Made by a program: the position numbers and the translations under genes. The notes below the pieces were generated by a model that made no database searches, was not told the DNA's origin, and saw only the letters and a list, made by a program, of their open reading frames with translations. This document shows, in pieces, positions 8,923-28,137 of a stretch of DNA of 39,008 nucleotides. Position 1 is the stretch's first letter. Each line of letters opens with the position of its first letter. The stretch is taken from the sequence record SRR33789315_70; one strand, given 5' to 3'.

Positions 8923-9034
8923 TTTTGCAGTCGTATTTTGGGAAGTAATACAACCTAAGATTATTTTGCTAGAGTTGCAATATCTAGTGCATAAAAATTG
9001 AAAAAAGGAAAGTGAATTAAAAAAAAATTATCCG

Positions 9035-10453
9035 TTATAGAACTTCCCTTTTTTGATAATATTTACTAAAAATTAAAAATAATATTCCGCAAGATAGCCA
9101 TGCTGGTAGGGTGAGGAAGGAAAGAAAAATGTCAAATTTCAGTGAAATTCCGTAGAAGACAATTAAACTTATAGCCCAAGCACCTAGAACAGCCCAATTG
9201 AAAACAATACCAGATTTTTCAGCATAAAATGTTTGAATTCCTGCTTTCTTTCCGAAGAAATATTCAAAAACAATAATAGCTCCTACGGGCGCCAAAATAA
9301 AGCCATAGAGTGCGACAAATCCCAATAATTTCATTGCAAAGGCAGGAAAAATACCTGCAATCGTTGCGATCGTTCCGGCCATTATAGTCACCCAGAACGT
9401 AGATGTTTTAGGCATAATCGCCTGAAAAGCCAAGCCTGCTCTATAAATAGTTGGGTTAGCAGTGGTCCATCCTGCAAGAATTACTGCAATTATTCCAAAA
9501 ATACCAATGGCGTTATATGCCAAGGGGCCTGGAGCAACCGGCGGAGCTTCACCGTTGGCTAAAAATACCTGAGCTTCGGGAGATTTAATATAAACAGCAT
9601 ACAATAACGCAGCAGCAATCCACGCCATAAAATGACCAATATACATTCCGGCAGCCGTTGTCCATCCAGAGGTAGCTTTTTTCGCAAAGCGAAAAACAGA
9701 CAAGTCTGACATGCCTATGTGCATCGCGGCATTGGCGAACCAAGACCATAACATTACATGCCAAAAAGTATATTTAATTTGCCCTGGAAAAGGATCACTA
9801 CCTTCTCCCCAAATGTTCCAGAAATCTGAAAAACTATGAACTTCAAGTTGTTTTAATGCTACTATTCCGCAAATAAGAAATGCCAAAACAATAATGGGAG
9901 ACATCCAGTTTGCCACTTTTGCAACTGTACTATATCCTTTTGCAGCAATAATAGAAATTACAGCACCTATGGCAATCACAATAATGACCCAAGTAATACT
10001 ATTAGGCATGGTGTCGGTTAATCTTGGCATTTCCATATTGAAAGGAATGCCTACAGCCGTAGCCGAAACAGTAATCATCGATCCTGCCAGGAAACAAAAT
10101 AATATCCCATTAGCCAGATTATAAAAGGTAACCAGGCGTTTTCCGCATATTTTTTCTAAATGAAAATACAGCGTATAACGAAATTTTGCAGCTATTTCTG
10201 CGGTGAGAAAACGCCAGCTCATTACTGCGAGCAAATTTCCAATTAACAAGCCCATAATGAGATCAAAGGCACTAACACCAGTGGTTAAAAATAGCGGGCC
10301 AATTACAAATTCGGTTCCTGCTGCGTGCTCACCAGCATACATGCCCAAGAAACTTTTCCAGTTTTTTAATTTTGAAACAGGAACTGGTTGACGTTCAAAT
10401 TCTCCAGATGTATTAATCTCTAGAGTTTGTGCTTCTTGATCGTATATGGCCAT
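9035..10453 (-). CDS. NCS1 (purine-cytosine permease-like) family transporter; context suggests a sugar or sugar-acid substrate
   Basis: 472 aa with about 12 hydrophobic segments; N-terminal ERQPVP, GEHAAGTEF and GWTTANPTIY resemble the CodB/CytX-type WTT-N motif. Last gene of the rha operon, 11 bp gap. Confidence 0.8.
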   Translation of the reverse strand: MAIYDQEAQTLEINTSGEFERQPVPVSKLKNWKSFLGMYAGEHAAGTEFVIGPLFLTTGVSAFDLIMGLLIGNLLAVMSWRFLTAEIAAKFRYTLYFHLEKICGKRLVTFYNLANGILFCFLAGSMITVSATAVGIPFNMEMPRLTDTMPNSITWVIIVIAIGAVISIIAAKGYSTVAKVANWMSPIIVLAFLICGIVALKQLEVHSFSDFWNIWGEGSDPFPGQIKYTFWHVMLWSWFANAAMHIGMSDLSVFRFAKKATSGWTTAAGMYIGHFMAWIAAALLYAVYIKSPEAQVFLANGEAPPVAPGPLAYNAIGIFGIIAVILAGWTTANPTIYRAGLAFQAIMPKTSTFWVTIMAGTIATIAGIFPAFAMKLLGFVALYGFILAPVGAIIVFEYFFGKKAGIQTFYAEKSGIVFNWAVLGAWAISLIVFYGISLKFDIFLSFLTLPAWLSCGILFLIFSKYYQKREVL

Positions 10454-10464
10454 AAAAAGAGTTC

Positions 10465-11619
10465 TTATTTAATAGAAACTAAGTGCTTGGGAAGATCTTC
10501 CACACGGTTACAACACAGTTGATCGAGTACTTGTTTGAATTGTATTTTTAAAATTTCAATAGTATGATCACCTCCTTTATCACCCAGTGCAGCAGCACCA
10601 TACATAAAAGAGCGGCCCATAAAAGTGAATTTTGCTCCACAGGCAATGGCGCGAGCAATATCGGGACCGGAGCGCATCCCGCTGTCCATCATTATTTCAA
10701 TAGAGTCACTGTACTTTTCAACAATATCAACTAAAGATCTAATGGTAGACTGTGCGGCATCTAGTTGACGGCCACCGTGATTGGAAACTATAATTCCATC
10801 AAAACCCATGGCAATTGCATCTTGCGTATCCTGTTCTGAAGCGACACCTTTTAGAACTAATTTACCTTTCCATTTATCTCTAATGGGTTTGATTTTTTCG
10901 GCATTTAACCTTCCTGAAAAGGTCTTATCCATAAACTGCCCCAGTTGTTTTAGGTTTAGTCCTTCGGGAGTATAGGGTTTTAGAGATTCAAAAGTGGGTT
11001 GACCATACTTTAAGGTATTGTATGCCCAAGCTGGTTTTCCTAAAATTTGAAGTATGTTTTTTGCTGACATTTTTGGCGGAAGTGCGAGCCCGTTTCTTAT
11101 ATCTCGTGGACGATAGCCAAAGGTGGGAACGTCGCAAAGTAGAACGAGAACAGGGCATTCTGCCGCAGCTGCTCTCTTCAATAAGTCATCGCGAATCTCA
11201 TCTTCAACGGGATTGTACAATTGAAACCAAGCTTTGCCTTCTGTAACCTCACTGGCACGCTCAATGCTCATTGTAGTTACCGTACTTAAAATAAATGGGA
11301 TGTTATGTTTGAAAGCTGCTTTGGCAAGGATTTCTGGGGAATTGGGCCACATCAAACCTTGCAAACCTACGGGAGCTATACCAAATGGGGCATCATATTC
11401 TATTCCCAGCACCTTTGTTTTTATAGAACTATTCCCATAATTTTGAAGGTACCTTGGCTGAAGTTGAACTTCACGAATATCTGATGTATTTCTGGCGATA
11501 CCTATATCTTCATTGCAACCACCATCCAGATAATCAAAGGCGAATGGAGGTACGCGTTTTTTTGCTTTTTCGCGCAAATCTGCTACTGAAGGATATTGAG
11601 TATCAAAAGTTGATGCCAT
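10465..11619 (-). CDS. lldD: FMN-dependent alpha-hydroxy-acid dehydrogenase, probable L-lactate dehydrogenase
   Basis: 384 aa; FDYLDGG, APVG, WFQLY, LKGV, SNHGGRQLD, DSGMRSGPD, MGR; 1 bp from the kinase stop codon. Confidence 0.85.
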   Translation of the reverse strand: MASTFDTQYPSVADLREKAKKRVPPFAFDYLDGGCNEDIGIARNTSDIREVQLQPRYLQNYGNSSIKTKVLGIEYDAPFGIAPVGLQGLMWPNSPEILAKAAFKHNIPFILSTVTTMSIERASEVTEGKAWFQLYNPVEDEIRDDLLKRAAAAECPVLVLLCDVPTFGYRPRDIRNGLALPPKMSAKNILQILGKPAWAYNTLKYGQPTFESLKPYTPEGLNLKQLGQFMDKTFSGRLNAEKIKPIRDKWKGKLVLKGVASEQDTQDAIAMGFDGIIVSNHGGRQLDAAQSTIRSLVDIVEKYSDSIEIMMDSGMRSGPDIARAIACGAKFTFMGRSFMYGAAALGDKGGDHTIEILKIQFKQVLDQLCCNRVEDLPKHLVSIK

Positions 11620-11620
11620 A

Positions 11621-13003
11621 TTAGTATAACTGTAGAGGTATGAGTTTTTTCATTTTATAATTGTCCTTAATAAATTTTGAAGTTATCTGCTTACTGGAAA
11701 TAACCATCACTGCGCCCAATGCCGTACCTAATGGGGATTGAGTGGACAGCACTTTAAATTGATTAAAGTGATGCGCCATTAATTTCATAAAGACATCATT
11801 ATCTGTAAAACCACCGTCTATATAAATCGTATTAATTTGACTATTTCCAATGGCTTTTTCAATGGTGCTAACTTGTAGTTCCATCAATTCAATCATCAAT
11901 TGGTGGTAAGCTTCTTCAAAAGTGGAGAACGACTTTAAGTCTGTTGCGTGTAATTTTTTTCGCTGTAGCGAAATACCTTCAAACTTGAAATAAATGGCTG
12001 AATTTTTAATAAGCTTCAGGTACAAGTCTTTGTCAAAGATTACCGTACGATGGTAACCGTATTCTTTTTGGTAATATTCTCCTAATTTTTCAACTTGAAT
12101 TCTATATTCCCTACCCATAAAAAAACGGGAAGCCTTTACGCGTTTACCATCTATTCGTAGATAATTTAGACAATTGTCGCAAAGATCTTGAGGAGTAAGT
12201 TGTTCTGAATTGAATGGATTTAAAGTGATGCTCCACGTGCCGGTAGAAACCAAAACAAAAGGTTTTTTCTTACTGAAAATATAAGGGAGCAAGGCCGAAG
12301 AACTGTCGTGAATACCTACGCCTATTTTTATTTTTTTGTCTTTAAATTTGGTGTTAATACTCGTCGAAGTAGGAACAATGGGAGCTAAAATTCTGTCAAT
12401 ATGCTCTTTATATACCCATTTGTGATAATCTGCTTTCTCATAATCCCATAAATTGGTGTGACATCCTATACTCGTGTATTCACTTACAGCAATTCCTGTA
12501 AAAAGATAGGAAAGGTATTGGGGAAGATGAAGGCTATATTTAATTTGACTGAATATTTCGGGTTTTGTTTTCTTTAACCAATAGAGTTGCATCCCGCTAT
12601 TCAAAAAACCAGATTGCGGTGAAGCGGTTTCTGTTGCAATTTTGCAAGAACCACCATAGGTTTCATAAAATTCTTTACTTAGAGCTTCTTCAATCGATTT
12701 CGTATAATTATAAAGAGGAGTTAAGGGTTTTCCTCGATGATCAATATGTACAAAACTTGCTCCATAGGTAGAAAAATTGACGGCTTTCACTTCATATTTT
12801 TCGTCCTCAAATACTTTTTTGAACGTCTCCTTGATCCAATTTTCTAACATGGATAAATCTTCACAAGGAAAACCTTCTTCATCTTTGGTTTCAGGTAAAC
12901 GAACATATTCTCTGTACACTTCTTGATAGTTCTTATCAAAAAGGAAGAATTTCTTATTGGTTTTACCAATATCAAATATGGCTGTTACTTTAGTATTAGA
13001 CAT
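11621..13003 (-). CDS. rhaB: FGGY-family carbohydrate kinase, probable L-rhamnulokinase
   Basis: 460 aa; FDIGKTNKK phosphate loop, STYGAS, GIHDSS, VSTGTWS, IDGG; directly follows the rhamnose isomerase. Confidence 0.82.
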   Translation of the reverse strand: MSNTKVTAIFDIGKTNKKFFLFDKNYQEVYREYVRLPETKDEEGFPCEDLSMLENWIKETFKKVFEDEKYEVKAVNFSTYGASFVHIDHRGKPLTPLYNYTKSIEEALSKEFYETYGGSCKIATETASPQSGFLNSGMQLYWLKKTKPEIFSQIKYSLHLPQYLSYLFTGIAVSEYTSIGCHTNLWDYEKADYHKWVYKEHIDRILAPIVPTSTSINTKFKDKKIKIGVGIHDSSSALLPYIFSKKKPFVLVSTGTWSITLNPFNSEQLTPQDLCDNCLNYLRIDGKRVKASRFFMGREYRIQVEKLGEYYQKEYGYHRTVIFDKDLYLKLIKNSAIYFKFEGISLQRKKLHATDLKSFSTFEEAYHQLMIELMELQVSTIEKAIGNSQINTIYIDGGFTDNDVFMKLMAHHFNQFKVLSTQSPLGTALGAVMVISSKQITSKFIKDNYKMKKLIPLQLY

Positions 13004-13007: not shown

Positions 13008-14282
13008 TTAGAGTCCTGTTGCTATGGTTTTGGTTCCGCGTTCTTGTATTAAATTCTTTCGCACGCCTAATTTTCTATACGTCGACAATGGATTAATTGC
13101 TCCACCTAAGTCTTCCCGCATTTTTTTAAGCAAGGGTCTAACATCGGTTCGGTAAGCATCTTGCAAAATTTCCTGACATTGGGCTACATCGTTTTCATTT
13201 TGAGCCATTAAAAGAGCTTTTCTATCAATGATCAATGCCTGTGCATACGCAATCATAATAGCTTCTAAGGATTGGAGTAAATCCTCCAGCGGATCTTTAG
13301 TATTGTGACTTGCATCTATCATCCAAGCCAAATCTGGATTTTGCGGATTGTTTTCCATACCATAAACCAGTTCATTGAAAATCAAGAATAGGGCATAGGG
13401 TTTTATGGAACCTACCGTAAGATCGTCATCACCGTATTTGCTGTCGTTAAAATGGAAACCACCTAATTTCCCTTTAAGCATAAGGGTTGCCACAATCTGT
13501 TCTATATTAGTATTGGGTAAATGATGACCCAGATCTACCAAGGTGAAAGCTCTATCTCCACAAGCTTGTGCCAGCATAAATGAAGTGCCCCAATCTTGAA
13601 TCACAGTGCTATAAAAATTGGGTTCGTAGGGTTTATATTCAATAAAGAGTTTCCAGTCTTCTGGCAAAGCAGAATAAATGGATTTTAAGCTTGCTTCGGT
13701 GTTTTTTAGCACCGATTGAAAATTAGATTGCCCTGGAAAATTAGCCCCATCTGCCAACCAAACCGTAAGACTTTTTGAGCCTAATTCTTTTCCGATTTTA
13801 ATTACCTCTAAATTATGCTGAATGGCTTGTTCTCGAGCAGATTCGTTTATACTGCTCAGTGAACCGTATTTATAGGTCTCTGTGGCATTAGTCTGATCCT
13901 GAAAAGTATTTGAATTCATAGCATCAAATGCAATTTGATGCTTTGCTGCAATTTCTTTTATGGCATGAACATCTGAGGGGATATCCCACGGAATATGTAA
14001 TGAAACAGCACCCGCACATTTTGTCAGGGCATTTAATATCCCAATATCATCCAGTTTTTGTTCTAAAGAAGCTGGCTCGCCACCGTATGAAAATCTTCCG
14101 AAGCGGGTGCCTCCAGCCCCTAATGCCCAACTGGGTATGGCGACTTGAAACTGCGAGAGTTTCTCCAAAACATGATCGAAGTCAATATTTTGATTATGAA
14201 GTTTCTTTTGTAGCAGTTCAAGTTCACTCACATAACATGAATCTGAATTTAAATCTGCTATTTGGTTAGGGGTTATTATCAT
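13008..14282 (-). CDS. rhaI: L-rhamnose isomerase, RhaI type (xylose-isomerase-like TIM barrel)
   Basis: 424 aa; PSWALGAGGTRF, LHIPWD, NSNTF, WLADG, EYKPYEP, VDLGHH, HFNDSKYGDDDL. Confidence 0.88.
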   Translation of the reverse strand: MIITPNQIADLNSDSCYVSELELLQKKLHNQNIDFDHVLEKLSQFQVAIPSWALGAGGTRFGRFSYGGEPASLEQKLDDIGILNALTKCAGAVSLHIPWDIPSDVHAIKEIAAKHQIAFDAMNSNTFQDQTNATETYKYGSLSSINESAREQAIQHNLEVIKIGKELGSKSLTVWLADGANFPGQSNFQSVLKNTEASLKSIYSALPEDWKLFIEYKPYEPNFYSTVIQDWGTSFMLAQACGDRAFTLVDLGHHLPNTNIEQIVATLMLKGKLGGFHFNDSKYGDDDLTVGSIKPYALFLIFNELVYGMENNPQNPDLAWMIDASHNTKDPLEDLLQSLEAIMIAYAQALIIDRKALLMAQNENDVAQCQEILQDAYRTDVRPLLKKMREDLGGAINPLSTYRKLGVRKNLIQERGTKTIATGL

Positions 14283-14293: not shown

Positions 14294-16393
14294 TTATCTT
14301 ACAAATGCATTAGCCATACCACCGTCTACATTTATAGTGTTTCCTGTACTTTTATCTAAAATTCCTACACAAACAAAAACGCCATTGGCGATATCTTGCG
14401 GAAGAATTATCTCGTTCAATAAATTTCTTTTAGCATAATGTTTGGGGAGCTCATCTACAGAAATCCCGTAAGCTTTTGCTCTTCCTTCAGCCCATTCTCC
14501 TTCCCATATTTTACTCCCTACTATGACACCATCTGGATTTACGGTGTTTACGCGTATTTTGTCTTTACCCAATTCTGCAGCCAAAAGACGCGTCATATGA
14601 AGTTGTCCTGCTTTTGCCGTTCCATAACCCACATTATTGGGGCCAGCAACGAGACCATTTTTACTAGCAATAGAAACCAGATCGCCTCCTAAATTTTGTT
14701 TTCTAAAAATATCAACTGCTTTTTGCGCCAATTCAAACTGGCCTTTAACCAAAACATCTTGTAACAGATACCAGTCTTTCTCGGTAGTATCTTCTAGAGA
14801 TTTTGAGATGGCAAGACCTGCACTATGTACAACAATATCTACTCCTCCAAATTCTAAACAGGCTTTTTTGAATGCTTTTTGAATAGATTCTGGTTTAGTG
14901 ACATCACACATCACATACGTAGCAATATCATTTTTAAAAGATTTTTCAACCTCGATCAATCGATCTTCAGCAATATCTGTAAGAACAATATTAGCTCCCT
15001 CTTCTGCAAGTTTTTCTGCAATAGCTTTTCCTATTCCGCCACCGGCGCCAGTAATTAAAGCTATCTTTCTAGAGAGGGTTTTCTCTTTGGGCATACGTTG
15101 TAATTTGGCTTCTTCCAGTAACCAATATTCAATATCAAACGCTTCCTGTCTAGGTAATGATGTGTAGGATGAAATGGCTTCTGCACCGCGCATTACATTG
15201 ATGGCGTTGACATAAAATTCGCTTGCTACCCGTGCTGTTTGCTTGTTCTTTGCAAAACTGAACATTCCTACTCCTGGATAGATTATAATCACGGGATTAG
15301 GATCTCGCATAGCAGGACTATTTGAGTGCTTACAATTTTCGTAATATGACTTATATTCTTCCCTATAAGCGACAAAGGCAGGCTCAAGTTCTTTTAAAAC
15401 AATAGCAGCATCTGTTTCTTCAAAGTCAGCACCCAGTTCGAGAACAAGAGGCTGTATTTTTGTACGTAAAAAGTGATCGGGACAGGAAGTGCCCATGGGA
15501 GCTAGGCGGTCAAGATCATTACTGTTTATATATTCTAGAACAGTTACACTATCTGTAAAATGACCAATCATTCTATTTTCAGAAGAGGTAAGTCCTCTTA
15601 GGATTGGCATTAATCCGGTAGCTTTTTCTTTTCTTTTTTCTGAGGTTAGACTTTCAACTTTTTGACCTCCGAAAACGTTACCTTTTTCAGTTAATTTTTT
15701 TTGAATATAATCTGAAGCTTGTTCAATTACTTCCAGACTGTTCATATAGCATTCATAAGAAGTATCGCCCCACGTAAATAGGCCATGGCTTCCTAAGATT
15801 ATCCCGCGAATACCAGGGTTTTCAGTAAGGCATTTTTCAAGTTGAAGTCCCAGATCAAATCCAGGACGCTGCCAAGGCACCCAACCCATACTACCTCCCC
15901 AAATTTCTTTAGTGATTGCTTCACCATCTTTAGCAGCAGCAATAGCAATCAATGCATCGGGATGTAAATGATCTATATGTTTAAACGGGAGTAACCCGTG
16001 AAGCGGAGTATCTATTGATGGAGCTTTACTGTTTAGATCATAAATACAATGATTGAACAAACCCACCATACGGTCTTCATCAGCCAACCCTTGATAGATA
16101 TTTTTTAAATTTCTTAGACGCTTTGTGTAGAGTCCAGCGATACCTTCTCTTGTTAAGGTACCTATATCACCTCCAGATCCCTTTACCCACATAACCTCTA
16201 CATCTTCATTGGTCAAAGGATCTTTTTCTATTGTTTTACAACTGGTATTGCCACCACCATAATTGGTGATTCTAAGGTCAGCCCCTAAGATATTAGAACG
16301 ATATAAAAATAAAGAAACCTGATCGTCTCCCAATTTTTCTTCTATATCTTTATCCCAAAGGTAATTTACATATTCAAAGTTTTTAACTTCCAT
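14294..16393 (-). CDS. rhaD: Bifunctional rhamnulose-1-phosphate aldolase / short-chain (lactaldehyde) dehydrogenase, RhaEW type
   Basis: 699 aa; class II aldolase N-domain (NYGGGNTS, KGSGGD, PSIDTPLH, HLHPD, CPDHFLRTK, EYWLLEEAKL) fused to an SDR domain (TGAGGGIG, YGTAK, VNPD, VDGG). Confidence 0.93.
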   Translation of the reverse strand: MEVKNFEYVNYLWDKDIEEKLGDDQVSLFLYRSNILGADLRITNYGGGNTSCKTIEKDPLTNEDVEVMWVKGSGGDIGTLTREGIAGLYTKRLRNLKNIYQGLADEDRMVGLFNHCIYDLNSKAPSIDTPLHGLLPFKHIDHLHPDALIAIAAAKDGEAITKEIWGGSMGWVPWQRPGFDLGLQLEKCLTENPGIRGIILGSHGLFTWGDTSYECYMNSLEVIEQASDYIQKKLTEKGNVFGGQKVESLTSEKRKEKATGLMPILRGLTSSENRMIGHFTDSVTVLEYINSNDLDRLAPMGTSCPDHFLRTKIQPLVLELGADFEETDAAIVLKELEPAFVAYREEYKSYYENCKHSNSPAMRDPNPVIIIYPGVGMFSFAKNKQTARVASEFYVNAINVMRGAEAISSYTSLPRQEAFDIEYWLLEEAKLQRMPKEKTLSRKIALITGAGGGIGKAIAEKLAEEGANIVLTDIAEDRLIEVEKSFKNDIATYVMCDVTKPESIQKAFKKACLEFGGVDIVVHSAGLAISKSLEDTTEKDWYLLQDVLVKGQFELAQKAVDIFRKQNLGGDLVSIASKNGLVAGPNNVGYGTAKAGQLHMTRLLAAELGKDKIRVNTVNPDGVIVGSKIWEGEWAEGRAKAYGISVDELPKHYAKRNLLNEIILPQDIANGVFVCVGILDKSTGNTINVDGGMANAFVR

Positions 16394-16493: not shown

Positions 16494-17516
16494 ATGATAG
16501 AATTTATAAAAATAAATGAATACTCCAAAGTTCCGAAGTATAAACAGATAATTAATTCAATCTTTTCAGCTATTGAAAATAACGATGTTAGACTCAATGA
16601 TAAGCTTCCCTCTGTAAATGAACTTTTAATAGAATTTGATATCTCCCGAGATACAATTGTGCGTGCATATGACTACCTGAAAAAGATAAATATTATAGAA
16701 TCTGTTCCGGGTAAAGGTTATTATATAAAAAATGATAAGCTTGAATTAAAAGCTCAGGTATTTCTCCTTTTTAATAAATTAAGTCCTCACAAAAAGATAA
16801 TTTATGATGCTTTTTCAACTACTCTCGGAGATAGTGGAACCATAGACTTCTTCATATATAACAATAATTATAGGCATTTTAAAGAGCTTATATTATCTAG
16901 TAAAGCAAGACAGTATACACATTATGTAATTATCACTCATTTTGAAGAAGGAGGAGAGGATGTTGTAGAATTTATCCAAAATGAAATACCTAAAGACAAA
17001 TTGGTGATTTTAGATAAAAAGATTGATAATCTAGGATCAGATGTGGCTTGTGTATATCAGGATTTTAAAAATGATATTTATTCTGCATTGGGTAATCTCA
17101 ATCCGTTGTTGAAAAAATATAAAGAGCTAAAATTAATTTTTAGAAAGAAAAGCTATCAGCCTTTAGAAATAAAAAAAGGTTTTAAACAGTTTTGTGGAGA
17201 GTATGCCTATGATTTTGAAATTGTTGAAAATCCAGAGGATATGGTCATTACTAATCATACAGTTTATATTAATTTGAAAGAGGATGACTTAGTTACTTTA
17301 ATTAAAAAAATAAAACGTACCGAATTTGTCTTAGGCAAAGATGTAGGTATCATTTCTTATAATGATAACCCACTTAAAGAAATTCTTTTAAATGGGATTA
17401 CCGTTATATCTACAGATTTCAACAAGCTAGGGGAGCAAGCAGCTCATTTAGTACTTAACAATCAAAAACTTCAATTTGACAACCCTTTCTATGTTATACC
17501 TAGAAAATCTCTCTAA
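16494..17516 (+). CDS. GntR-family regulator with C-terminal sugar-binding (periplasmic-binding-protein-like) domain, Bacteroides FucR-like
   Basis: 340 aa; PKYKQI...KLPSVNEL...ISRDTIVRAY...PGKGYY winged HTH; C-terminal DVGIISYND...ITVISTDF..LG resembles LacI-type effector domains. Divergent from the rha operon. Confidence 0.9.
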   Translation: MIEFIKINEYSKVPKYKQIINSIFSAIENNDVRLNDKLPSVNELLIEFDISRDTIVRAYDYLKKINIIESVPGKGYYIKNDKLELKAQVFLLFNKLSPHKKIIYDAFSTTLGDSGTIDFFIYNNNYRHFKELILSSKARQYTHYVIITHFEEGGEDVVEFIQNEIPKDKLVILDKKIDNLGSDVACVYQDFKNDIYSALGNLNPLLKKYKELKLIFRKKSYQPLEIKKGFKQFCGEYAYDFEIVENPEDMVITNHTVYINLKEDDLVTLIKKIKRTEFVLGKDVGIISYNDNPLKEILLNGITVISTDFNKLGEQAAHLVLNNQKLQFDNPFYVIPRKSL

Positions 17517-17610: not shown

Positions 17611-17737
17611 GATGGTTAACATTGTGTGATGATATTTATAAGCTAACTTTTTTTCACCTATTATATTCTATCTACTATATCGATTGAGAAGGCACTCTTT
17701 TTATATTGGTTTTAGAGTAAAGTCAAATAAAAGACAT

Positions 17738-20700
17738 ATGATGAGCACAAAAAAAATTTTACAAGTATTCCCTTTTTTATGGGCAATTCTATTGAGCATT
17801 ACCTCTTATGGTCAAGAAAATCTTACCGTAACAGGAACGGTGAGAGAAGAAGCAACCGGCTCACCTATTCCGGGAGTTACCATTTTGGTAAAGAGTACAA
17901 CAGTAGGTACGACTACGGATTTTGATGGTAATTTTAGCATAGAAGTGAATCCAGAGGCCACATTAGTGGTTTCCTATTTGGGTTTTGCTACGCAGGTGAT
18001 ATCAATTAATGGCAGGACAGTTATCAATATTGCACTTACTACTGATTCACAAGAATTATCAGAGGTAGTAGTTGTTGGTTATGGTACAGTCCGAAAAAGC
18101 GATCTTACCGGGGCGGTTTCTTCCATTACCTCTGAGCAAATTCAGGAGCGCTCAAATGTGAATGTTATGTCATCTCTATCTGGACAAGTAGCCGGGGTAC
18201 AGATACAACAAACACAAGGCGCACCTGGTTATGCACCTGTTATAAAAATAAGGGGAACATCTACCATCACCGCGGGTATTAATCCTTTATATGTAATAGA
18301 TGGTTTTCCTATAGAAGGATTTGATATGGGAAATATCAATCCTCAAAATATTGAATCTATAGAGATTCTAAAAGATGCATCTTCTGCTGCTATTTATGGA
18401 TCACGTGGTGGTAATGGAGTAGTACTCATCACCACCAAAAAAGGAGCAGTGGGTAAAACTCAGGTCAGTGTAAGCTATGAGCACGGCGTGCAACAGGTGG
18501 TTCGAACTGTAGATATGATGAATTCACAAGAATTTATCCAGTATTATGTTGACGCACATAACAATTCTTGGATACGAGAAGGAGGAAGTGCCAGTGATCC
18601 CAATAGTATAAGACCTTCAAATTATCAAATTCCGCCCGAATTTTTGACAGCTCCCGATAGTTTTGAAACAACAGATTGGCAAGACGTGCTTTTTAGCGAT
18701 GCACCAAGTGACAATATAAATTTGTCAGTAAGTGGAGGTAATGAGAATACAAGATTCTTTATTTCTGGCGGATACATTTCGCAGGAAGGGATTGTTGACA
18801 ATGCAGAATATAACCGTCTTTCATTACGCTCTAATATCTCTCATAATATTGTAGATAATTTAAAGGTTGGGATGAATTTATCCTTGGCTAATATAAAAAG
18901 TAAGGAGTATGGTACCACCGGTAAAGCGGGCTCGGTAAGCTTATCTTTACAAAATGATCCTATTTTTCCCGTGTATAATGAAAACGGAAACTTAGGTTTT
19001 AAAGATCCCAATTCGGTATGGAGTAGGTTCATTCCTTATAACCTTCAGCTTTGGCATCCATATGCGCTCACCCGAGAGATTGATAATCTAAACAAAGAAT
19101 TAAATGTTATAGCAAATACTTTCGCAGAATATAATTTTCTTCAGGATTTCACTTTTAGAACAAGTTATAACTTCACAGTTAATAACAGTCGTTATAGTGA
19201 CTATCGCAATGAAGGCCAGTTATGGGGATATTCAAACTATCAACCTGCTTTAGCCAATAACAATACCTATTACAATTACAACTGGCTTTTTGAGAACACC
19301 TTGAACTACAATAAGATACTGGGTGAGCATACTTTCAATGTACTTCTGGGTTATTCTACACAAGAGAACCATTATGAAGAAAGCCTTATTACTTCAGATA
19401 ATTTCCCTAATGATCTTGTGCACACACTTAATGCTGGAAAACCTGCATCTGCATCGTCTTCTGAGTCAGACTGGAGTATGATTTCCTATTTGGCAAGGCT
19501 TAATTATTCCTTTCAAGATGAATATTTATTAACGGCAACCATACGTCGAGATGGTAGTTCACGGTTTGGTCTTAATAATCAATGGGGATATTTCCCTTCA
19601 GGATCAGTAGCATGGAAACTGTCAGAAAGAGATTTTATTAAAGAATTAGATTGGCTTTCTACATTGAAATTAAGAGCAAGTTATGGTATTACAGGAAACA
19701 ATTTAATACCCAATTATGGTGCTATAGGGCTTTTGGGCCAAACCCAATATGCTTGGGGTAATAATGTGGAGCAAGGAATTTATAAATCTACCATATCAAA
19801 TGCTGATCTTAAATGGGAAAAAACAGGACAATTTGATATAGGTCTAAATGCTTCTCTTTTTGGTAACAGGATTTATGTAGAGGCAGATTATTACAGTTCT
19901 ACAACTCGAGATTTGCTATTGAACCAACCCGTACCTCTTATTACCGGTTTTGCAGAGCAGTTAACCAATATTGGTAAAGTGAGAAACAGAGGTTTTGAGT
20001 TTTTGGTAACCAGTAAGAATTTTGTGGGAGAATTTGGATGGCAAACAAATTTCAACATATCTATCAATCGTAATGAAGTATTGGAATTGGGACAGAACAA
20101 TGCGCCTATTTTTGTTAATGAATGGGGTACTACCAAAACCGAAATTGGCGAACCTATTGCCAATTACTTTGGCTACATCTTTGACGGCGTTTTCATGAAT
20201 CAAAGTGAGGTAGACAACTATCCACATGTTTCTTCGACAACGCCTGGAGATCCAAGAGTTAAAGATGTAAATGGAGATGGTACCATTGATGAAAACGACC
20301 GGACTATTATAGGAAACGCACAACCTGATTTTACTTTTGGTTTTACCAATACCTTTACCTTCAAAAATTTTGATCTCAGCGCAACCCTTCAAGGATCTGT
20401 AGGTAACGAAATTCTTAACAGCCAAGCCAGATATAATAAATATTATAATGGAAACAGGAATGGTTATAAGCAAATTGTAGACTACTGGAAGTCTGAATCT
20501 AATCCTGGTGACGGTGAGCATTTTAAACCTTATGTAAGTTATCCTGGTCTCCAAACTCAGTTTTCCGATTATTGGGTTGAAGATGGCTCCTATCTGCGTA
20601 TTGCCAATCTTAGGTTGGGATATTCCTTCTCTGAAGATAATCTAACCAGAATGCCTTTTAAAGATGCTCGTATTTATATAAATGTTGACAACCTTTATGT

Positions 20701-20827
20701 ATTTACTGATTATTCCGGTTATGACCCAGAGAATAGTACATACTCAGACGCATTAAATACAGGAAATGATTACGGCGCCTATCCATTGCCGAGAACCATA
20801 ACAGTAGGCGTAAAACTCGGTTTGTAA
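17738..20827 (+). CDS. susC: SusC/RagA TonB-dependent transporter (PUL-1)
   Basis: Signal peptide, CarboxypepD_reg-like domain (GTTTDFDGNF), EVVVVGYG, plug ILKDASSAAIYGSRGGNGVVLITTKKG, LKWEKT, C-terminal YPLPRTITVGVKLGL. ATG at 17738 or 17741 preferred to the TTG at 17684. No N-terminal STN domain apparent. Confidence 0.96.
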   Translation: MMSTKKILQVFPFLWAILLSITSYGQENLTVTGTVREEATGSPIPGVTILVKSTTVGTTTDFDGNFSIEVNPEATLVVSYLGFATQVISINGRTVINIALTTDSQELSEVVVVGYGTVRKSDLTGAVSSITSEQIQERSNVNVMSSLSGQVAGVQIQQTQGAPGYAPVIKIRGTSTITAGINPLYVIDGFPIEGFDMGNINPQNIESIEILKDASSAAIYGSRGGNGVVLITTKKGAVGKTQVSVSYEHGVQQVVRTVDMMNSQEFIQYYVDAHNNSWIREGGSASDPNSIRPSNYQIPPEFLTAPDSFETTDWQDVLFSDAPSDNINLSVSGGNENTRFFISGGYISQEGIVDNAEYNRLSLRSNISHNIVDNLKVGMNLSLANIKSKEYGTTGKAGSVSLSLQNDPIFPVYNENGNLGFKDPNSVWSRFIPYNLQLWHPYALTREIDNLNKELNVIANTFAEYNFLQDFTFRTSYNFTVNNSRYSDYRNEGQLWGYSNYQPALANNNTYYNYNWLFENTLNYNKILGEHTFNVLLGYSTQENHYEESLITSDNFPNDLVHTLNAGKPASASSSESDWSMISYLARLNYSFQDEYLLTATIRRDGSSRFGLNNQWGYFPSGSVAWKLSERDFIKELDWLSTLKLRASYGITGNNLIPNYGAIGLLGQTQYAWGNNVEQGIYKSTISNADLKWEKTGQFDIGLNASLFGNRIYVEADYYSSTTRDLLLNQPVPLITGFAEQLTNIGKVRNRGFEFLVTSKNFVGEFGWQTNFNISINRNEVLELGQNNAPIFVNEWGTTKTEIGEPIANYFGYIFDGVFMNQSEVDNYPHVSSTTPGDPRVKDVNGDGTIDENDRTIIGNAQPDFTFGFTNTFTFKNFDLSATLQGSVGNEILNSQARYNKYYNGNRNGYKQIVDYWKSESNPGDGEHFKPYVSYPGLQTQFSDYWVEDGSYLRIANLRLGYSFSEDNLTRMPFKDARIYINVDNLYVFTDYSGYDPENSTYSDALNTGNDYGAYPLPRTITVGVKLGL

Positions 20828-20847
20828 AATAAAAAAAAAGCAGCAAA

Positions 20848-22275
20848 ATGAAAACAAGTAATATTAAAATAACCCTACTCGCACTTCTAGGTATATACCT
20901 AACGTCCTGTTCGGATGATTTTTTGGAGTTGGCTCCTATTTCACAAATGAATGAGAATGACTTCTATCAATCAGAAGCAGATTTCAGGCTGGCTGTAAAT
21001 GCAGCTTATCAAACACTTCACAGTCAATATGGTCCTAATAGCGGGGTAAGTTACGTTGGCGAACAAATGTCTGATGAAGCTACCGTTTATATGGTCATAG
21101 GAAATGTAGCAGATAGATCTGCTTTTAAAAACTATACCTTACGTGCAGATAATAGTGTGGTACAAACTATTTGGAATGATGCTTTTATTTCCTTAAATAG
21201 AATCAATACGGTTCTAACCAGAATGGAAGGAGCCGATTTTGATGCAAGTACGATGACTGAAATTGAAGGGGAGATGCGTTTTTTACGCGGCTTGTACTAT
21301 TTCAATTTAGTAAGAATGTTCGGTCCAGTACCACTCTTGGAAAGGACGGTTTCAGTTGAAGAAAGTTATGGTGTATTACGCTCACCGGTAACTGAAGTTT
21401 ATGATTTCATAATCTCAGATCTACAATTTGCAGCAGCTAATTTACCTCTTGTCTCAGAGGCCGAAAGAACTGGCCAAGCAACTGAAGGAGCAGCAAAAGG
21501 AATTTTAGGTAAAGTCTATCTCACCTTGGGAGACAACAGTTCTGCAGCTTCTGTTTTAGAAGACGTTATTGATTCTGGAGAATATCATCTACTAGACAAT
21601 TACTGGTGGTTGTGGGATTTAGAACATGAAAATTCATCTGAGGCTGTTTTTGAAGTCCAGTACGTAGGCGGTCCTGGTAATCCAGCAAGTGCCTATTGGC
21701 CAGAGTTTTCTCCCTTTGAAAATTTTATTATCACGAATCAAGGTGGTGGAATGAATCAAGTAACAGAAGACCTCTGGAATTCTTATGAAGATGATGATCC
21801 TAGAAGAGAATACTCTGTTAATGAAGGATATTACGACAGCAACGGAACATTTATTCCAATTAAATTTCCTAGAAAATGGGAAGATAGAAATGTTATTGAA
21901 AAGTATGGTAACGAGTATTGTGATAATAATTTTATAGTCCTTAGGTATGCAGATATTTTACTAATGTATGCTGAAGCAACCCAAGATCCCACTTACCTTA
22001 ACGAAGTAAGAGAAAGAGCCGGTGTCCCACTTTATGGCACGGCAGGTTACCCTTCTGCAATGTACCCGTCGTTTGATCTAGCAATAGAACATGAGAGAAA
22101 AGTTGAACTGGCATTAGAATTTCATCGCTGGTTTGACCTTAAGAGAAAAGATAGGGTTATACCTGTAATGACAGAATTTTTAGGAGAAAATATAAAAGAG
22201 GACGAACTTTTATTGCCTATTCCACAAACGGTGATTGATAAAAATCCTGAAATTAGCCAAAATCCCGGATACTAA
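20848..22275 (+). CDS. susD: SusD/RagB glycan-binding lipoprotein (PUL-1)
   Basis: 475 aa; lipobox LTSC, GEMRFLRGLYYFNLVRMFGPVP, RYADILLMYAEA, ERKVELALEFHRWFDLKR, QNPGY. Confidence 0.95.
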   Translation: MKTSNIKITLLALLGIYLTSCSDDFLELAPISQMNENDFYQSEADFRLAVNAAYQTLHSQYGPNSGVSYVGEQMSDEATVYMVIGNVADRSAFKNYTLRADNSVVQTIWNDAFISLNRINTVLTRMEGADFDASTMTEIEGEMRFLRGLYYFNLVRMFGPVPLLERTVSVEESYGVLRSPVTEVYDFIISDLQFAAANLPLVSEAERTGQATEGAAKGILGKVYLTLGDNSSAASVLEDVIDSGEYHLLDNYWWLWDLEHENSSEAVFEVQYVGGPGNPASAYWPEFSPFENFIITNQGGGMNQVTEDLWNSYEDDDPRREYSVNEGYYDSNGTFIPIKFPRKWEDRNVIEKYGNEYCDNNFIVLRYADILLMYAEATQDPTYLNEVRERAGVPLYGTAGYPSAMYPSFDLAIEHERKVELALEFHRWFDLKRKDRVIPVMTEFLGENIKEDELLLPIPQTVIDKNPEISQNPGY

Positions 22276-22287
22276 TTTTGGGATAGT

Positions 22288-22324
22288 AAGGGAATCTTTT
22301 TTAAAAGATTCCCTTTATTTTTTT
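22288..22324 (+). terminator. Intrinsic terminator / attenuator between susD and the enzyme genes
   Basis: Perfect 13-bp inverted repeat AAGGGAATCTTTT-tt-AAAAGATTCCCTT (22288-22315) followed by a T-rich tract. Confidence 0.8.
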
Positions 22325-22350
22325 AAATCCTACCTTAATAAAGAGTTAGA

Positions 22351-24642
22351 ATGAATAAAATATGGTCAAAATACGTCGCTCTAGTGATTTTCCTGAGTTT
22401 ATCAAATACCTATGGATGGAGCCAAATAACCTATCCAGATTATAAAGAGGAAAGTGAGAAAGCTAAAATCTCGACGAAGATTTCAAATGAATACATGCCG
22501 GTAATAGGTGTTTGGGTTTGGGGTCAACGTGATATGGAACCTGATGGATTCAAAAAGAGTATAGACGATCTTGCTTCAAATTCTCCCTTTAATCTTATCG
22601 TTCCTTTTTTGCGATTTCCTGACAAAGAAGTGACTGATGATGTGGTTTATCAGCAGGTGAAAGAAGCTTCAGAATATGCAGCGGCAAAAGGCGTATTGCT
22701 AGTGCCAGATCTTGATGTGCGTTCTGCGAGGAGGGCCTTTAAGGCTAAATATCCAGACGAGCTTCAACAAATGTTGAGGTTAAAGGAAGTTGAACTAGAG
22801 GATAAAACAGTTACGATTCCCAGTATGGATCTTAATGATCATTATTCTGGCGGAAACATTACCCATCATATTCCTTTAGAAGGTGAATTGCTCAAGGTGT
22901 ATGCTTACAAAACCACTACCGAAGGAATTGAACCGAAGTCTATTGTTGATATTACTGAAGAAACTAAAATCCTATATGCTACTAAAGATTCAGTAAGTGT
23001 ACAATTACCAGCGCTTAAAAAAGGTCTGACGCATGCTTCGGTTTTAGTTGCTTTTACACACTTATACCCTGATATCTTCGGTCCTCATCTTATGAAATTC
23101 CAAGAGGGTATCATTAAAAAGTATAAAGGACTTCCAGTAGCAGGTGTTTGCAAGGATGAGTTTGGTTTTCCTCCTTATTATCCGAGATTTTTTAGACAAG
23201 GATTTTATGATTATTGGTATTCTGTTAATCGCGCAGAAGCTTATCAAGAAAAAACAGGAAGAGAACTTCTGCCAGACATATTGCTAATGGCCAGAAAGGT
23301 AAAGGGGAAAGAAAGTGAGCGGCAAACGGCGATCAATAATTTTATGGAGATGTCCAGATACCGTCATCGCGATCTTGAAGCTAGTTTTTATGATACGACT
23401 AAAGAAGTATTTGGTCCAGATGCTGCAGTAACGGTACACTCCACGTGGTGGCCTTTTCCTGACAAGCAGGAATTTAAGAAAAACGGACTCGATTGGTGGG
23501 TTACAAAGCGGGATTGGGCACAGACTGATGAGGTGGTTCCTTATGCTGTTCGGACTGCTTTGAGTAAAAAATGGCCCAGTCCCATTTGGTACAATATGTA
23601 TTATAAAGAGGATTATTCAACCCAGATGTGGAGCTCGGTTCTTGCGGGTGGAAGATTGAATTATTTAAGGTATTACGCTTTATATGATAAGGAGCGCATG
23701 CAAGGTGAAAACCGAATTAGACTCCTGAATTATATCACAAAAACACCCGTTTATTCACCTGTCGCAGTGATTTTTGGTCACGCTAATGCAATGAATTGGG
23801 CAGGTACTGAGCACGATGACGTAGGGATGGCATTAGTGGATAGCTTGTGGCATAAAGGTTTTCTTGTAGATTTGATTCCCACCAGTGAAATTGATAATGG
23901 AAGTTTAGAAATTTCACCTAGCGGAAAAATCAAATATGGTTCTCAGGAATATGAAGAAGTTATTCTTTATCATCCTGAATTTGAAAAGGAATCTACAGCT
24001 GATTTCTTTAGCAAAGCCAAAAAAGGAACTGCACTATACCGCATAGGAGATTGGACTAAAACTTTCGATGGAAAAGCTATTGAAGGGAATGATTTACTTC
24101 CAGAAATGATGCAGGTCGCTGGAGGAATTTCAGAAACCGCTGAAGCGGTCATTAACTCTTTAAAGTCCAAAAACATAGATCCTCAAAGCCCATCTACCGA
24201 AGTAATTGACAATACTTTTTTTGGTTTACGGGATTTTGAACACGCTTCGTATGCCCCGCCTACCACTGGTTTTGCTAAGTTGATAGATGGAACAATAATT
24301 AAAACTGCTGGAACTAATTCTGCTGCGGGCGATCCCATAAATGAAGAGTTTAAGATACGTGATAAAACTGTCTCTGTTGATGCAATAGGTGTTGTTGCAG
24401 TGCGTCTAGATGAGGCGGGAAAATTGGATGCTATGGTTGCTGGAGGCTTTAAGTCTTTTGAAGTAGATGATTTCAAAATTGAGCTAAATGAAAGAAATGA
24501 TATAGCTTTATGGAAAGACGAAAATGACCAATGGAAAGGCGTTTTTCAAAGTATTAACTCTGAAATCCCTCAAGAATTATTAAAAATCACTCATAATTGG
24601 ACACAATTAGAGGCACCCACACCGCCCTTAAAAGAGCAATAA
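22351..24642 (+). CDS. Secreted protein of unknown function; candidate glycoside hydrolase (TIM-barrel-like plus GH42/GH106-style Rossmann-like domain)
   Basis: 763 aa; signal peptide; Trp/Tyr-rich; VCKDEFG acidic pair after a beta-strand; PVAVIF...SLWHKGFLVDLI segment resembling the domain after the barrel in GH42/GH106. Located in a PUL. The ORF is secure, the function is inferred. Confidence 0.55.
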   Translation: MNKIWSKYVALVIFLSLSNTYGWSQITYPDYKEESEKAKISTKISNEYMPVIGVWVWGQRDMEPDGFKKSIDDLASNSPFNLIVPFLRFPDKEVTDDVVYQQVKEASEYAAAKGVLLVPDLDVRSARRAFKAKYPDELQQMLRLKEVELEDKTVTIPSMDLNDHYSGGNITHHIPLEGELLKVYAYKTTTEGIEPKSIVDITEETKILYATKDSVSVQLPALKKGLTHASVLVAFTHLYPDIFGPHLMKFQEGIIKKYKGLPVAGVCKDEFGFPPYYPRFFRQGFYDYWYSVNRAEAYQEKTGRELLPDILLMARKVKGKESERQTAINNFMEMSRYRHRDLEASFYDTTKEVFGPDAAVTVHSTWWPFPDKQEFKKNGLDWWVTKRDWAQTDEVVPYAVRTALSKKWPSPIWYNMYYKEDYSTQMWSSVLAGGRLNYLRYYALYDKERMQGENRIRLLNYITKTPVYSPVAVIFGHANAMNWAGTEHDDVGMALVDSLWHKGFLVDLIPTSEIDNGSLEISPSGKIKYGSQEYEEVILYHPEFEKESTADFFSKAKKGTALYRIGDWTKTFDGKAIEGNDLLPEMMQVAGGISETAEAVINSLKSKNIDPQSPSTEVIDNTFFGLRDFEHASYAPPTTGFAKLIDGTIIKTAGTNSAAGDPINEEFKIRDKTVSVDAIGVVAVRLDEAGKLDAMVAGGFKSFEVDDFKIELNERNDIALWKDENDQWKGVFQSINSEIPQELLKITHNWTQLEAPTPPLKEQ

Positions 24643-26769: not shown

Positions 26770-28127
26770 TGAATAGAATACCTACAATGAAACCTTTTTT
26801 GATACTGCTTTGGTGTTTTTTAAGCGTAAACTCCTTTGCTCAGGTTTTTAATGTTTTTGATTATGGGGCCAAAGGTGATGGGAAAACGAATGATCAGGAG
26901 GCGATTCAACGAGCCGTGAACGCTTGTAAAAATGGAGGAACCGTTCTTTTAAAGAATGGAACTTTTCTTACTGGTCAAATTGAACTGGTGAGTAATATGA
27001 CGTTGCAAATCGATTCAACCGCCACAGTATTGGGAATGAAATCTGACGAGGAAAGCGTTTATCCGCATCAACTTATAGAGACCCAATATCCCAACCGTAT
27101 GGAGCAGGATTGCCAGCGGCGCTTGATTTATGGTAATCATATTGAAAATGTCACCATTACTGGAGGAGGAACCCTAAACGGACAAGGGGATTATGAACCT
27201 TGGATGAATGTAAAAGAGCTGGGTACCGAGAAAGATAGACCGTCAATTTTAGCTTTTGTGGGTTCAAAAAACATAACGGTTTCTAATGTGACGATGCTTT
27301 ATCCAGCTTGCTGGACACAGGTATACATTGAGTGTGACGACGTACATATTAAGGGGATTAAAGTCAATACAGGTCAATTGACACCTAACCGCGATGGGAT
27401 TGATATTGTGGATTGTCATAATGTGTTGATTGAAGATAGTTTTATCCAGTCTGAAGATGACGGGATTTGCTTTAAAAGCGGAAGCGAATACGGGTGCAAG
27501 GATGTGGTGGTGCGCAACTGTATTATTGATAAATTGAACGTTCCAGCAGGGAATGGTTTTAAATTAGGAACAGACGGACTGGGGAGTTTTATGAACTTTG
27601 AAGTTTATGATTTGACCATCAAAAATGCCTTTCAAAATTCGGCATTAGTTATAGAATCTATGGATGGTGCGGTAATCGATAATATCAACATCAAGGATTG
27701 TACAATAGAGAATAGTGGCCAAGCGATTTTTGTGCTGCTGGCTGACAGAAAACGTACGGTTCCCGATCGAAAAGAAAGGATCGGGACAATTTCTAATATT
27801 CATTTTGAAAATATAAAAGGTAAGGATTTTACACAACAATATCCTTCTATAATTACGGGTATAGAAGGGCATAATATTCAGAATATTTCCTTTAAAAACA
27901 TTGATTTTGAATTAAAAGGAGGGATTTCAAATAAAGATCAAACCGTAATGGAATATGACGGTAAATATCCCGAGGGAAGCAAATTTGGCAATACCAATGC
28001 CTATGCTTTTTTTGTGCGTCATACCGATGAAATTTCCTTTGTAAACTGCACTATTTCTTCGGAAGAAGACGATGCTCGGGAATGGTTAATTACTGAAAAT
28101 GTAAACGAAGTTGTTGTTGAAGAATAA
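26769..28127 (+). CDS. GH28-family beta-helix glycoside hydrolase with atypical motifs
   Basis: FDYGAKGDG, NRDGIDI, EDDGICFKSG, FKLGT. Start at 26769 (TAATG overlap with the upstream stop) or 26787; signal peptide follows MKPF. Confidence 0.85.
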   Translation: MNRIPTMKPFLILLWCFLSVNSFAQVFNVFDYGAKGDGKTNDQEAIQRAVNACKNGGTVLLKNGTFLTGQIELVSNMTLQIDSTATVLGMKSDEESVYPHQLIETQYPNRMEQDCQRRLIYGNHIENVTITGGGTLNGQGDYEPWMNVKELGTEKDRPSILAFVGSKNITVSNVTMLYPACWTQVYIECDDVHIKGIKVNTGQLTPNRDGIDIVDCHNVLIEDSFIQSEDDGICFKSGSEYGCKDVVVRNCIIDKLNVPAGNGFKLGTDGLGSFMNFEVYDLTIKNAFQNSALVIESMDGAVIDNINIKDCTIENSGQAIFVLLADRKRTVPDRKERIGTISNIHFENIKGKDFTQQYPSIITGIEGHNIQNISFKNIDFELKGGISNKDQTVMEYDGKYPEGSKFGNTNAYAFFVRHTDEISFVNCTISSEEDDAREWLITENVNEVVVEE

Positions 28128-28137
28128 AGAGACATTT

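Follow-up and report, generated by a model that had tools for sequence, protein, structure and literature searches.

A 39,008-nucleotide stretch of DNA from sequence record SRR33789315_70 (hereafter the window, by which we mean this whole stretch) carries an operon for L-rhamnose catabolism whose last gene encodes a permease, the protein under study here. The operon comprises five open reading frames (ORFs) arranged in tandem on the minus strand in the order rhaEW-rhaI-rhaK-lldD-permease (Table 1). The spacers between them are 11, 4, 1, and 11 nt long and agree exactly with the gaps named in the original prediction, an earlier note made from the sequence of this DNA. The permease gene, fifth in the series, has 11 nt of free space upstream and 112 nt downstream. 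Judging from its sequence, its modeled fold, and its genomic context, we consider it likely that this permease imports L-rhamnose.

RhaEW, part of which is a short-chain dehydrogenase, exceeds the cut-offs of NF006191 (1333 against 1240 bits) and TIGR02632 (943 against 568 bits), and its enzyme family has been characterized (PMC3870299). The RhaI-type isomerase falls under both of its equivalog cut-offs (646.75 bits in the case of TIGR02629), and the best NCBIfam match of the FGGY kinase, the rhamnulokinase model TIGR02627, reaches 68.9 bits, far under its cut-off. The LldD-like enzyme would oxidize L-lactate to pyruvate.

A scan of all 21 ORFs of at least 100-120 amino acids (aa) in the window against family models and for hydrophobic 19-mers revealed the permease as the sole polytopic membrane protein, with 10 such 19-mers compared with 0-1 in each of the others. 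None of these 21 ORFs encodes a RhaT, major facilitator superfamily (MFS), or ATP-binding cassette (ABC) sugar transporter, as the original prediction had claimed for the window.

Table 1. Features of the window and permease homologues at sister-clade loci. FMN, flavin mononucleotide; GH, glycoside hydrolase; AF2, AlphaFold2.
Feature	Position	Strand	Basis
Permease, 472 aa, 12-helix LeuT fold, distant NCS1 relative, proposed L-rhamnose:cation symporter	9035..10453	-	TIGR00800, AF2, Foldseek, hhalign, linkage
FMN-dependent alpha-hydroxy-acid dehydrogenase, LldD-like	10465..11619	-	PF01070 388 bits; NF008398 and LldD models below cut-offs
FGGY sugar kinase, RhaK-type rhamnulokinase (inferred)	11621..13003	-	FGGY_N and FGGY_C; conserved operon position
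RhaI-type L-rhamnose isomerase	13008..14282	-	TIGR02629 500.8 bits, TIGR02635 406.5 bits
RhaEW, bifunctional L-rhamnulose-1-phosphate aldolase/L-lactaldehyde dehydrogenase	14294..16393	-	NF006191, TIGR02632
Regulator, GntR-type helix-turn-helix and periplasmic-binding-protein-like sensor domain	16494..17516	+	PF00392, PF13377
Polysaccharide-utilization locus: SusC, SusD, two unknown proteins, GH28, GH43	17684..29718	+	family scans
Sister-clade loci with Mannitol_dh neighbor: L085, L088, L089, L090, L091, L092	permease homologue ~9.0-11.2 kb		

Family membership and fold of the permease

The permease gene is real, since 7592 of 8000 scored candidates are homologous to its product at E ≤ 0.001 and the 119 best non-self matches listed are 79-85% identical to it. 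The only curated model that matches is TIGR00800 (NCS1), which aligns over residues 22-430 with 45.2 bits (E = 5.1e-12) and thus does not reach its cut-off of 353.1 bits. No Pfam family matches at E ≤ 10, PF02133 (NCS1) included, and PF06379, the model for RhaT, which belongs to the superfamily of drug/metabolite transporters (DMT), likewise gives no match at E ≤ 10; the PF06379 model does match in two control genomes, those of E. coli and B. thetaiotaomicron. Chain sequences in the Protein Data Bank (PDB) yielded no relevant match, either by phmmer with the single sequence or by hmmsearch with a 30-sequence profile.

Comparison of the 30-sequence alignment with E. coli CodB by hhalign gives a probability of 96.8% (E = 3e-10, 395 columns). 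The AlphaFold2 model (predicted local distance difference test score 87.8, predicted template-modeling score 0.87) comprises 12 long helices, with transmembrane helices (TMs) 1 and 6 broken as in the LeuT fold. Foldseek places CodB and Mhp1 at ranks 1-5 (template-modeling scores 0.69-0.83; 0.71/0.83 for CodB 7qoa and 0.72/0.75 for Mhp1), and the next matches after these NCS1 members are SGLT, SiaT, and NIS. The original label of the protein as NCS1-like therefore holds for remote homology and fold, given the full-length TIGR00800 match, hhalign, and Foldseek, but not at the level of the curated NCS1 cut-offs, which are missed. For this permease, "NCS1 family" is meant in the superfamily or fold sense only.

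Close relatives are publicly named "purine-cytosine permease family protein" or "hypothetical protein," and the ESM Atlas holds solely "purine-cytosine permease family" clusters, one of which has PF02133 on 25% of its members. The permease branch comprises 761 cluster representatives at E ≤ 0.001 out of 1.84 billion, the best non-self representative being 53% identical; among its distant members, the few that carry names originate from a Verrucomicrobiota metagenome-assembled genome (MAG), a MAG of Henriciella, and Chromera, an alga-related protist. These names, together with the remote homology and fold likeness to CodB and Mhp1, would fit an ordinary NCS1 carrier of nucleobases, hydantoins, or vitamins that lies in the operon by chance. 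The TIGR00800 score of 45 bits against a cut-off of 353 and the missing PF02133 match argue against such a carrier, as do the linkage, co-occurrence, and binding-site data given below, and we regard it as extremely improbable.

Linkage to rhamnose genes

We scanned one genome per species and obtained 552 pattern-matched stretches, 499 of which encode a relative of the permease. The 80 best of these loci, 75-85% identical to the permease and taken with 10-kb flanks, come from Flavobacteriaceae, Saprospiraceae, and some Cytophagales; their rha neighbors were detected by tblastn with the window's own proteins. RhaEW, RhaI, or RhaK is encoded near the permease in 73 of the 80 loci, at most 2727 bp away (median 1190 bp) and on the same strand in all 73. 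The immediate neighbor in these linked loci is LldD in 60, RhaK in 10, RhaEW in two, and RhaI in one. Three of the seven unlinked loci are contigs of just 2.2-3.6 kb, and the remaining four are from Imperialibacter.

More distant relatives were drawn from a sample of 401 Bacteroidota genomes, 39 of which contain a match; 28 loci were fetched, four at 74-80% identity and 24 at 41-59%. Rha genes are adjacent in three of the former, and 20 of the latter adjoin RhaI, RhaEW, or RhaK at a median distance of 285 bp and in varying gene orders. The nearest gene in these 20 loci encodes RhaI in eight and RhaEW in 12, it lies on the same strand in 17, and an LldD match occurs in none. One further locus (L098), with a 53% identical homologue, places the permease directly beside an E. 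coli-type RhaA isomerase (PF06134), which is not homologous to RhaI; with it, rha linkage at 41-59% identity extends to 21 of 24 loci. In a FastTree phylogeny rooted on a clade of ~35% identity, loci with rha linkage are spread over the whole tree, the deepest branch (L119) included.

Because the linkage outlasts 40-60% divergence, the shuffling of gene order, and the replacement of the isomerase by another family, it points to a shared pathway role, and we take this conserved genomic association as strong evidence that the permease acts in the rhamnose pathway. An unrelated nucleobase carrier would hardly be expected to keep such company from 85% down to 41% identity.

Within the pathway, one could also suppose that the cargo of the permease, entering or leaving the cell, is a product (L-lactate, L-lactaldehyde, or 1,2-propanediol, for example) rather than the sugar, as the LldD-like gene is the permease's immediate neighbor both here and at 60 of the 73 close loci with rha linkage. 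An LldD match is missing from 13 of these 73 loci, which connects the permease with the rha genes rather than with the oxidation of lactate; in these 13 and in all 20 linked loci of intermediate identity, the permease stays beside RhaK, RhaI, or RhaEW without LldD. The conserved linkage places it at the sugar end of the pathway rather than the lactate end. Moreover, RhaEW and LldD would use up lactaldehyde and lactate inside the cell, making an exporter needless, and the genes at 26730-28127 and 17684-22275 would supply rhamnose from outside in a window that encodes no other importer. Product transport is accordingly very unlikely in our estimate, and lactate transport in particular was rejected on the ground that rha linkage persists without LldD.

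Several of these loci have features of their own. The RhaA gene of L098 (10729-11989) is broken up into a 166-aa and a 269-aa ORF, which could reflect a frameshift, a pseudogene, or an assembly error, and it is followed by genes for a GH29 fucosidase, a sulfatase, and a GH3 enzyme. The rha clusters of L081 (1779-5709) and L082 (11465-15389) also encode a 429-aa double-Aldolase_II protein, an FMN_dh protein, and an aldehyde dehydrogenase, and L081 additionally has LutA- and LutB-like lactate-utilization genes; these extra genes may constitute a second aldolase/lactaldehyde route.

Co-occurrence with RhaI and relation to RhaT

We searched 301 Flavobacteriaceae genomes for the permease, for RhaI, and, by means of its Pfam model, for RhaT, counting permeases of at least 74% identity as orthologs and RhaT matches of at least 219 bits as strong. 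Orthologs are encoded by 68 genomes and RhaI by 74, the two sets overlapping in 67 (Fisher p = 1e-57, the genomes not being phylogenetically independent). RhaI is thus present in 67 of 68 ortholog carriers and in seven of 233 non-carriers, a distribution that a nucleobase carrier placed by chance would not explain. In the sole ortholog genome that lacks RhaI, the permease gene sits on a tiny contig.

Among the seven RhaI genomes without an ortholog, four have a strong RhaT only, two have a strong RhaT together with a ~50% identical paralogue of the permease, and one has neither. The paralogues of those two genomes sit inside the rha cluster (L081 and L082). Strong RhaT accordingly accompanies RhaI in six of seven genomes without an ortholog compared with nine of 67 with one (p = 1.7e-4, uncorrected for relatedness). 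A RhaT match of at least 176 bits is absent from 50 of the 67 genomes that have both ortholog and RhaI, leaving the rhamnose uptake step without an assigned carrier in most of the sampled relatives that have the pathway.

The PF06379 matches fall into score classes, of which those at 176-197 bits and 52-99 bits occur also in genomes that lack RhaI (five and 10 genomes, respectively). The 176-197-bit class is therefore probably not rhamnose-specific, and many RhaT homologues in Flavobacteriaceae are probably not rhamnose carriers. We also looked at five genomes behind the fetched loci. RhaT is absent from the closest relatives, Leeuwenhoekiella marinoflava (L006) and Galbibacter (L001), and a Formosa and a Saprospiraceae genome have both the permease and RhaT.

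Comparison with the CodB binding site

Over residues 1-410, E. coli CodB and the solved CodB of Proteus vulgaris (7QOA) align gaplessly and can be numbered alike. In CodB, cytosine is sandwiched by Trp108 (TM3) and Phe204 (TM6), two aromatic residues conserved throughout NCS1; carbonyls of TM1 together with the TM8 residues Thr278 and Thr279 hold Na+ at the Na2 site; and Arg216 and Tyr285 are constant (PMC9379551). We followed the corresponding permease positions in 124 homologues, made up of 86 orthologs, 28 sequences at 41-59% identity, and 10 paralogues of ~35% identity.

The hhalign alignment pairs CodB N275-I-W-T-T-N-D-N-A-L-Y285 with permease A327-G-W-T-T-A-N-P-T-I-Y337, so that W277-T278-T279 corresponds to W329-T330-T331 and Y285 to Y337; R216 pairs with R255, S206 with H245, and T211 with D250. 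The Na2-site threonines are kept, T330 in 123 of 124 homologues and T331 in all 124, and W329, Y337, and R255 are invariant along with T331.

The substrate site differs. CodB F204 pairs with A243 in a gapless stretch anchored by G208/G247 and R216/R255, and the TM6 aromatic is therefore absent from the permease. Ala occupies position 243 in 85 of the 86 orthologs and in 26 of the 28 homologues of intermediate identity, and Ile takes its place in all 10 of the ~35% identical paralogues, a clade linked to Mannitol_dh genes (see below). CodB W108 falls in a three-residue gap of the alignment; the permease has no Trp in TM3, and a conserved F119 within three residues of this point could be its equivalent. 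Loss of the TM6 side of the nucleobase sandwich is a further point against a nucleobase carrier.

Polar residues are conserved at the helix breaks, namely E42, H43, T47, and E48 at the TM1 break and N241, H245, and D250 at the TM6 break. Invariant in the 124 homologues are E42, T47, E48, N115, W238, N241, and D250, and near-invariant (at least 122 of 124) are H43, N112, F119, and H245. The rhamnose-linked and Mannitol_dh-linked clades differ at G41 and G46 in TM1, at 120-124 in TM3, at 239, 243, 244, and 248 in TM6, and at 333-335 in TM8, that is, in the helices that form the central site of the LeuT fold. These patterns suggest that the scaffold and cation site were inherited and that the substrate pocket was rebuilt with hydrogen-bonding side chains, as would suit a sugar.

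Paralogues and the wider branch

A sister clade of ~573-aa proteins, 33-38% identical to the permease and without a Pfam match, occurs in 27 of the 301 Flavobacteriaceae genomes. We scanned the neighbors in eight of the 10 fetched loci of this clade (all except L093 and L094). In six of the eight, a gene of the Mannitol_dh family (494-508 aa) directly follows the permease homologue, often overlapping it (Table 1), which makes the two a candidate permease-dehydrogenase pair for a polyol or hexuronate. Nested paralogues of ~45% identity (L083:9236-10657 and L084:9752-11155) lie in polysaccharide-utilization loci (PULs) with an IU_nuc_hydro-like gene, sulfatases, GH43, GH38, and SusC/D, and may represent a shift of specificity within a sulfated-glycan PUL. 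No nucleobase-catabolic neighbors were present in the paralogue loci examined, just as no such gene is adjacent to the permease itself.

With a sister clade next to Mannitol_dh genes, paralogues in PULs, and no nucleobase-catabolic neighbors, the whole branch looks, from sequence context, like one of sugar and polyol carriers rather than base carriers. It consists of a Bacteroidota-wide rhamnose clade, which judging by source and cluster names only extends to Verrucomicrobiota, the sister clade tied to mannitol-dehydrogenase-family genes, and the offshoot in sulfated-glycan PULs. On balance we lean toward a Pfam-less branch of the NCS1 superfamily that would carry neutral sugars and polyols instead of nitrogen heterocycles, with the Na2 site kept and the pocket rebuilt with a conserved set of Glu, His, Asn, and Asp.

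The same paralogues bear on whether the substrate of the permease is rhamnose itself. It might instead import a related compound, such as a rhamnose di- or oligosaccharide, L-fucose, L-mannose, L-lyxose, or neutral monosaccharides broadly, with rhamnose entering by another route; the Mannitol_dh neighbors in six of eight loci, the PUL with sulfatases, GH43, and GH38, the GH29 fucosidase close to the L098 homologue, and the strong RhaT in nine of 67 genomes with ortholog and RhaI would all be compatible with this. Import of an oligosaccharide would need a cytoplasmic rhamnosidase, which the conserved five-gene operon lacks, and the pocket of a ~470-aa protein of NCS1 size would fit a monosaccharide. 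The linkage tracks the isomerase, kinase, and aldolase, a pathway that starts from free L-rhamnose, and most genomes with ortholog and RhaI (50 of 67) have no RhaT match of at least 176 bits through which rhamnose might enter. We consider a related substrate in place of rhamnose unlikely.

Genes surrounding the operon

The regulator gene diverges from rhaEW, and a homologue adjoins rhaEW in most related loci; it is probably the regulator of the operon. The available portion of Rodionova et al. 2013 (PMC3870299) names no GntR-type rhamnose regulator of Bacteroidetes. A scan of positions 8700-17700 for sigma-70 promoters and terminators gave no more sites than shuffled sequences, and an inverted-repeat scan of the intergenic regions returned just weak, A/T-rich palindromes and no operator.

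Beyond the regulator, the adjoining PUL is the likely source of free rhamnose; the best NCBIfam match of its GH28 protein is a rhamnogalacturonidase model, below cut-off. Within this locus lie two neighboring plus-strand ORFs (22351-24642 and 24643-26769; 763 and 708 aa) whose products have no Pfam, NCBIfam, or PDB-sequence match and no hydrophobic segments. They may encode so far uncharacterized enzymes that act on glycans, within a PUL of the rhamnogalacturonan type. Farther out comes a second SusC/SusD locus, with GH10. On one side of the operon are the hexuronate genes uxaC, a tagaturonate reductase gene, and a gene of the altronate/galactarate dehydratase family, and sbcCD lies directly downstream of the permease gene.

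Discussion

The original prediction had proposed a non-orthologous replacement, in which an NCS1-fold protein takes the place of the usual rhamnose transporter. Our results favor this reading in all three of the suggested checks that were made in silico. Homologues co-localize with rha genes in close and distant relatives alike (73 of 80 and 21 of 24 loci), and comparison with the CodB site shows the cation site and scaffold kept and the TM6 nucleobase aromatic replaced. The expected anticorrelation with rhaT appears in the frequencies of strong RhaT (six of seven versus nine of 67), but the complementarity is not strict. We therefore propose that the permease probably serves as the inner-membrane uptake permease for free L-rhamnose in the rhamnose module of Flavobacteriaceae.

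From the gene, its operon, fold, remote homology, linkage, co-occurrence, and residue conservation, we infer the following model, with its substrate, transport direction, coupling ion, and residue roles. SusC/D systems and glycosidases, belonging to a pectin-type PUL here and to ulvan-type PULs in relatives, would release rhamnose into the periplasm. The 12-helix LeuT-fold symporter would then carry free L-rhamnose over the inner membrane together with a cation, after which RhaI, RhaK, and RhaEW, in the enzyme roles characterized for them (PMC3870299), would turn it into dihydroxyacetone phosphate and L-lactate, and the LldD-like enzyme would convert the lactate to pyruvate. Alternating access would come about by the hash motif rocking against the four-helix bundle, as in CodB and Mhp1. 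The Na2 site, between TM1 and W329-T330-T331 of TM8, would accommodate the cation, most likely Na+; that it is Na+ rather than H+ is probable, at lower confidence than the import of L-rhamnose. In the pocket, which would lie at the breaks of TM1, TM3, TM6, and TM8, Ala243 would stand in place of the TM6 aromatic, and E42, H43, T47, E48, N112, N115, N241, H245, and D250 would be positioned to hydrogen-bond the hydroxyls of the sugar.

Several observations weigh against this model. The four Imperialibacter loci (L060, L064, L075, and L078), which have a 75-76% identical homologue, contain no rha gene within 10 kb; RhaI is 26 kb away on the single complete chromosome, and the coordinates fit 22-30 kb in the other three. 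The L060 permease adjoins a GntP-family permease, a ThuA/GSDH/PKD protein, and a DUF7133-cytochrome c protein, neighbors that were assigned by Pfam for L060 and assumed alike for the other three loci. Rha genes are also missing within 10 kb at L123, the exception among the four loci at 74-80% identity, and no rhamnose gene was found within 10 kb at L096, L100, and L115, at 41-59% identity. Nine of the 67 genomes with ortholog and RhaI have a strong RhaT as well, so that permease and RhaT do not exclude each other and might have different substrates or affinities. The absence of RhaT at the present locus applies to the window, and a RhaT may be encoded elsewhere in the genome. The L083 and L084 paralogues suggest that specificity has shifted at least once within the rhamnose clade, and the TM1 and TM3 stretches of the CodB alignment are gapped, so that residue equivalences there are uncertain. 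Finally, the literature searched contained no transport, binding, or genetic data for any family member.

CodB (cytosine:Na+, PDB 7QOA) and Mhp1 (hydantoin:Na+, PDB 2JLN/4D1A), the closest known structures, share the 12-helix LeuT fold with the permease and are its best structural matches (template-modeling scores 0.71-0.83). The likeness to CodB extends to profile-level homology (hhalign, 96.8%) and to the retained TM8 W-T-T motif, Tyr285/Y337, and Arg216/R255. Identity in structural alignments is nevertheless only 14-18%, and the permease scores below the curated cut-offs for NCS1, the family of CodB and Mhp1 (TC 2.A.39). It differs from CodB in the Ala at the F204 position, the lack of a TM3 Trp, and the new conserved polar residues at the TM1 and TM6 breaks, and from both proteins in a genomic context of sugar catabolism instead of codA or hydantoinase genes.

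RhaT (L-rhamnose:H+, DMT superfamily, PF06379), known from E. coli and Bacteroides, has the role (PMC3870299) and the rha-adjacent position that we propose for the permease, and the two are distributed in a largely complementary way among RhaI-positive Flavobacteriaceae. They are nonetheless unrelated in fold and family: RhaT has ~340 aa and 10 helices and the permease 472 aa and 12 helices, with a coupling ion that is probably Na+ and not H+. The sodium/solute symporters (SSS; vSGLT, SGLT1/2, and SiaT) share the superfold, the Na2 site, and a sugar or sugar-acid substrate, and are the next-best structural matches. They have 13-14 helices, match less well (root-mean-square deviation 7-10 Å), and give no sequence-level signal.

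Non-orthologous replacement of rhamnose uptake has precedents predicted from operon and regulon evidence. The L-rhamnose transporters in Rodionova et al. 2013 are RhaT, the ABC system RhaSTPQ/RhaFGHJ, and the MFS sugar porter RhaY (PMC3870299), the latter systems belonging to superfamilies other than that of the permease. The term "NCS1" is absent from the main text of that paper, and the available portions of PMC5306329, PMC11767280, and the preprint 10.64898/2025.12.01.691665 name no rhamnose transporter. Our search of main-text literature, with supplements and most subscription journals outside its range, found no NCS1-type rhamnose permease described or tested. The present analysis contributes data on how widely the linkage extends, counts of co-occurrence and complementarity, the apparent sugar/polyol character of the wider branch, and the comparison of binding sites. 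The permease emerges from them as a putative NCS1-fold symporter with a sugar substrate.

L-rhamnose ranks among the major sugars of pectin (rhamnogalacturonan) and of green-seaweed ulvan, and Flavobacteriia are leading degraders of both. If the permease imports L-rhamnose as proposed, it would be the chief way for rhamnose to enter marine Flavobacteriia that degrade polysaccharides, and its assignment would fill a gap left in metabolic reconstructions of the turnover of algal and plant glycans. It would also mend a systematic misannotation ("purine-cytosine permease") in hundreds of genomes, 499 of the 552 stretches scanned encoding a relative, and could provide a compact, probably Na+-driven rhamnose importer for engineered strains grown on seaweed hydrolysates. 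For the family, L-rhamnose would add sugars to the substrates carried by the NCS1 fold and be its first sugar substrate class.

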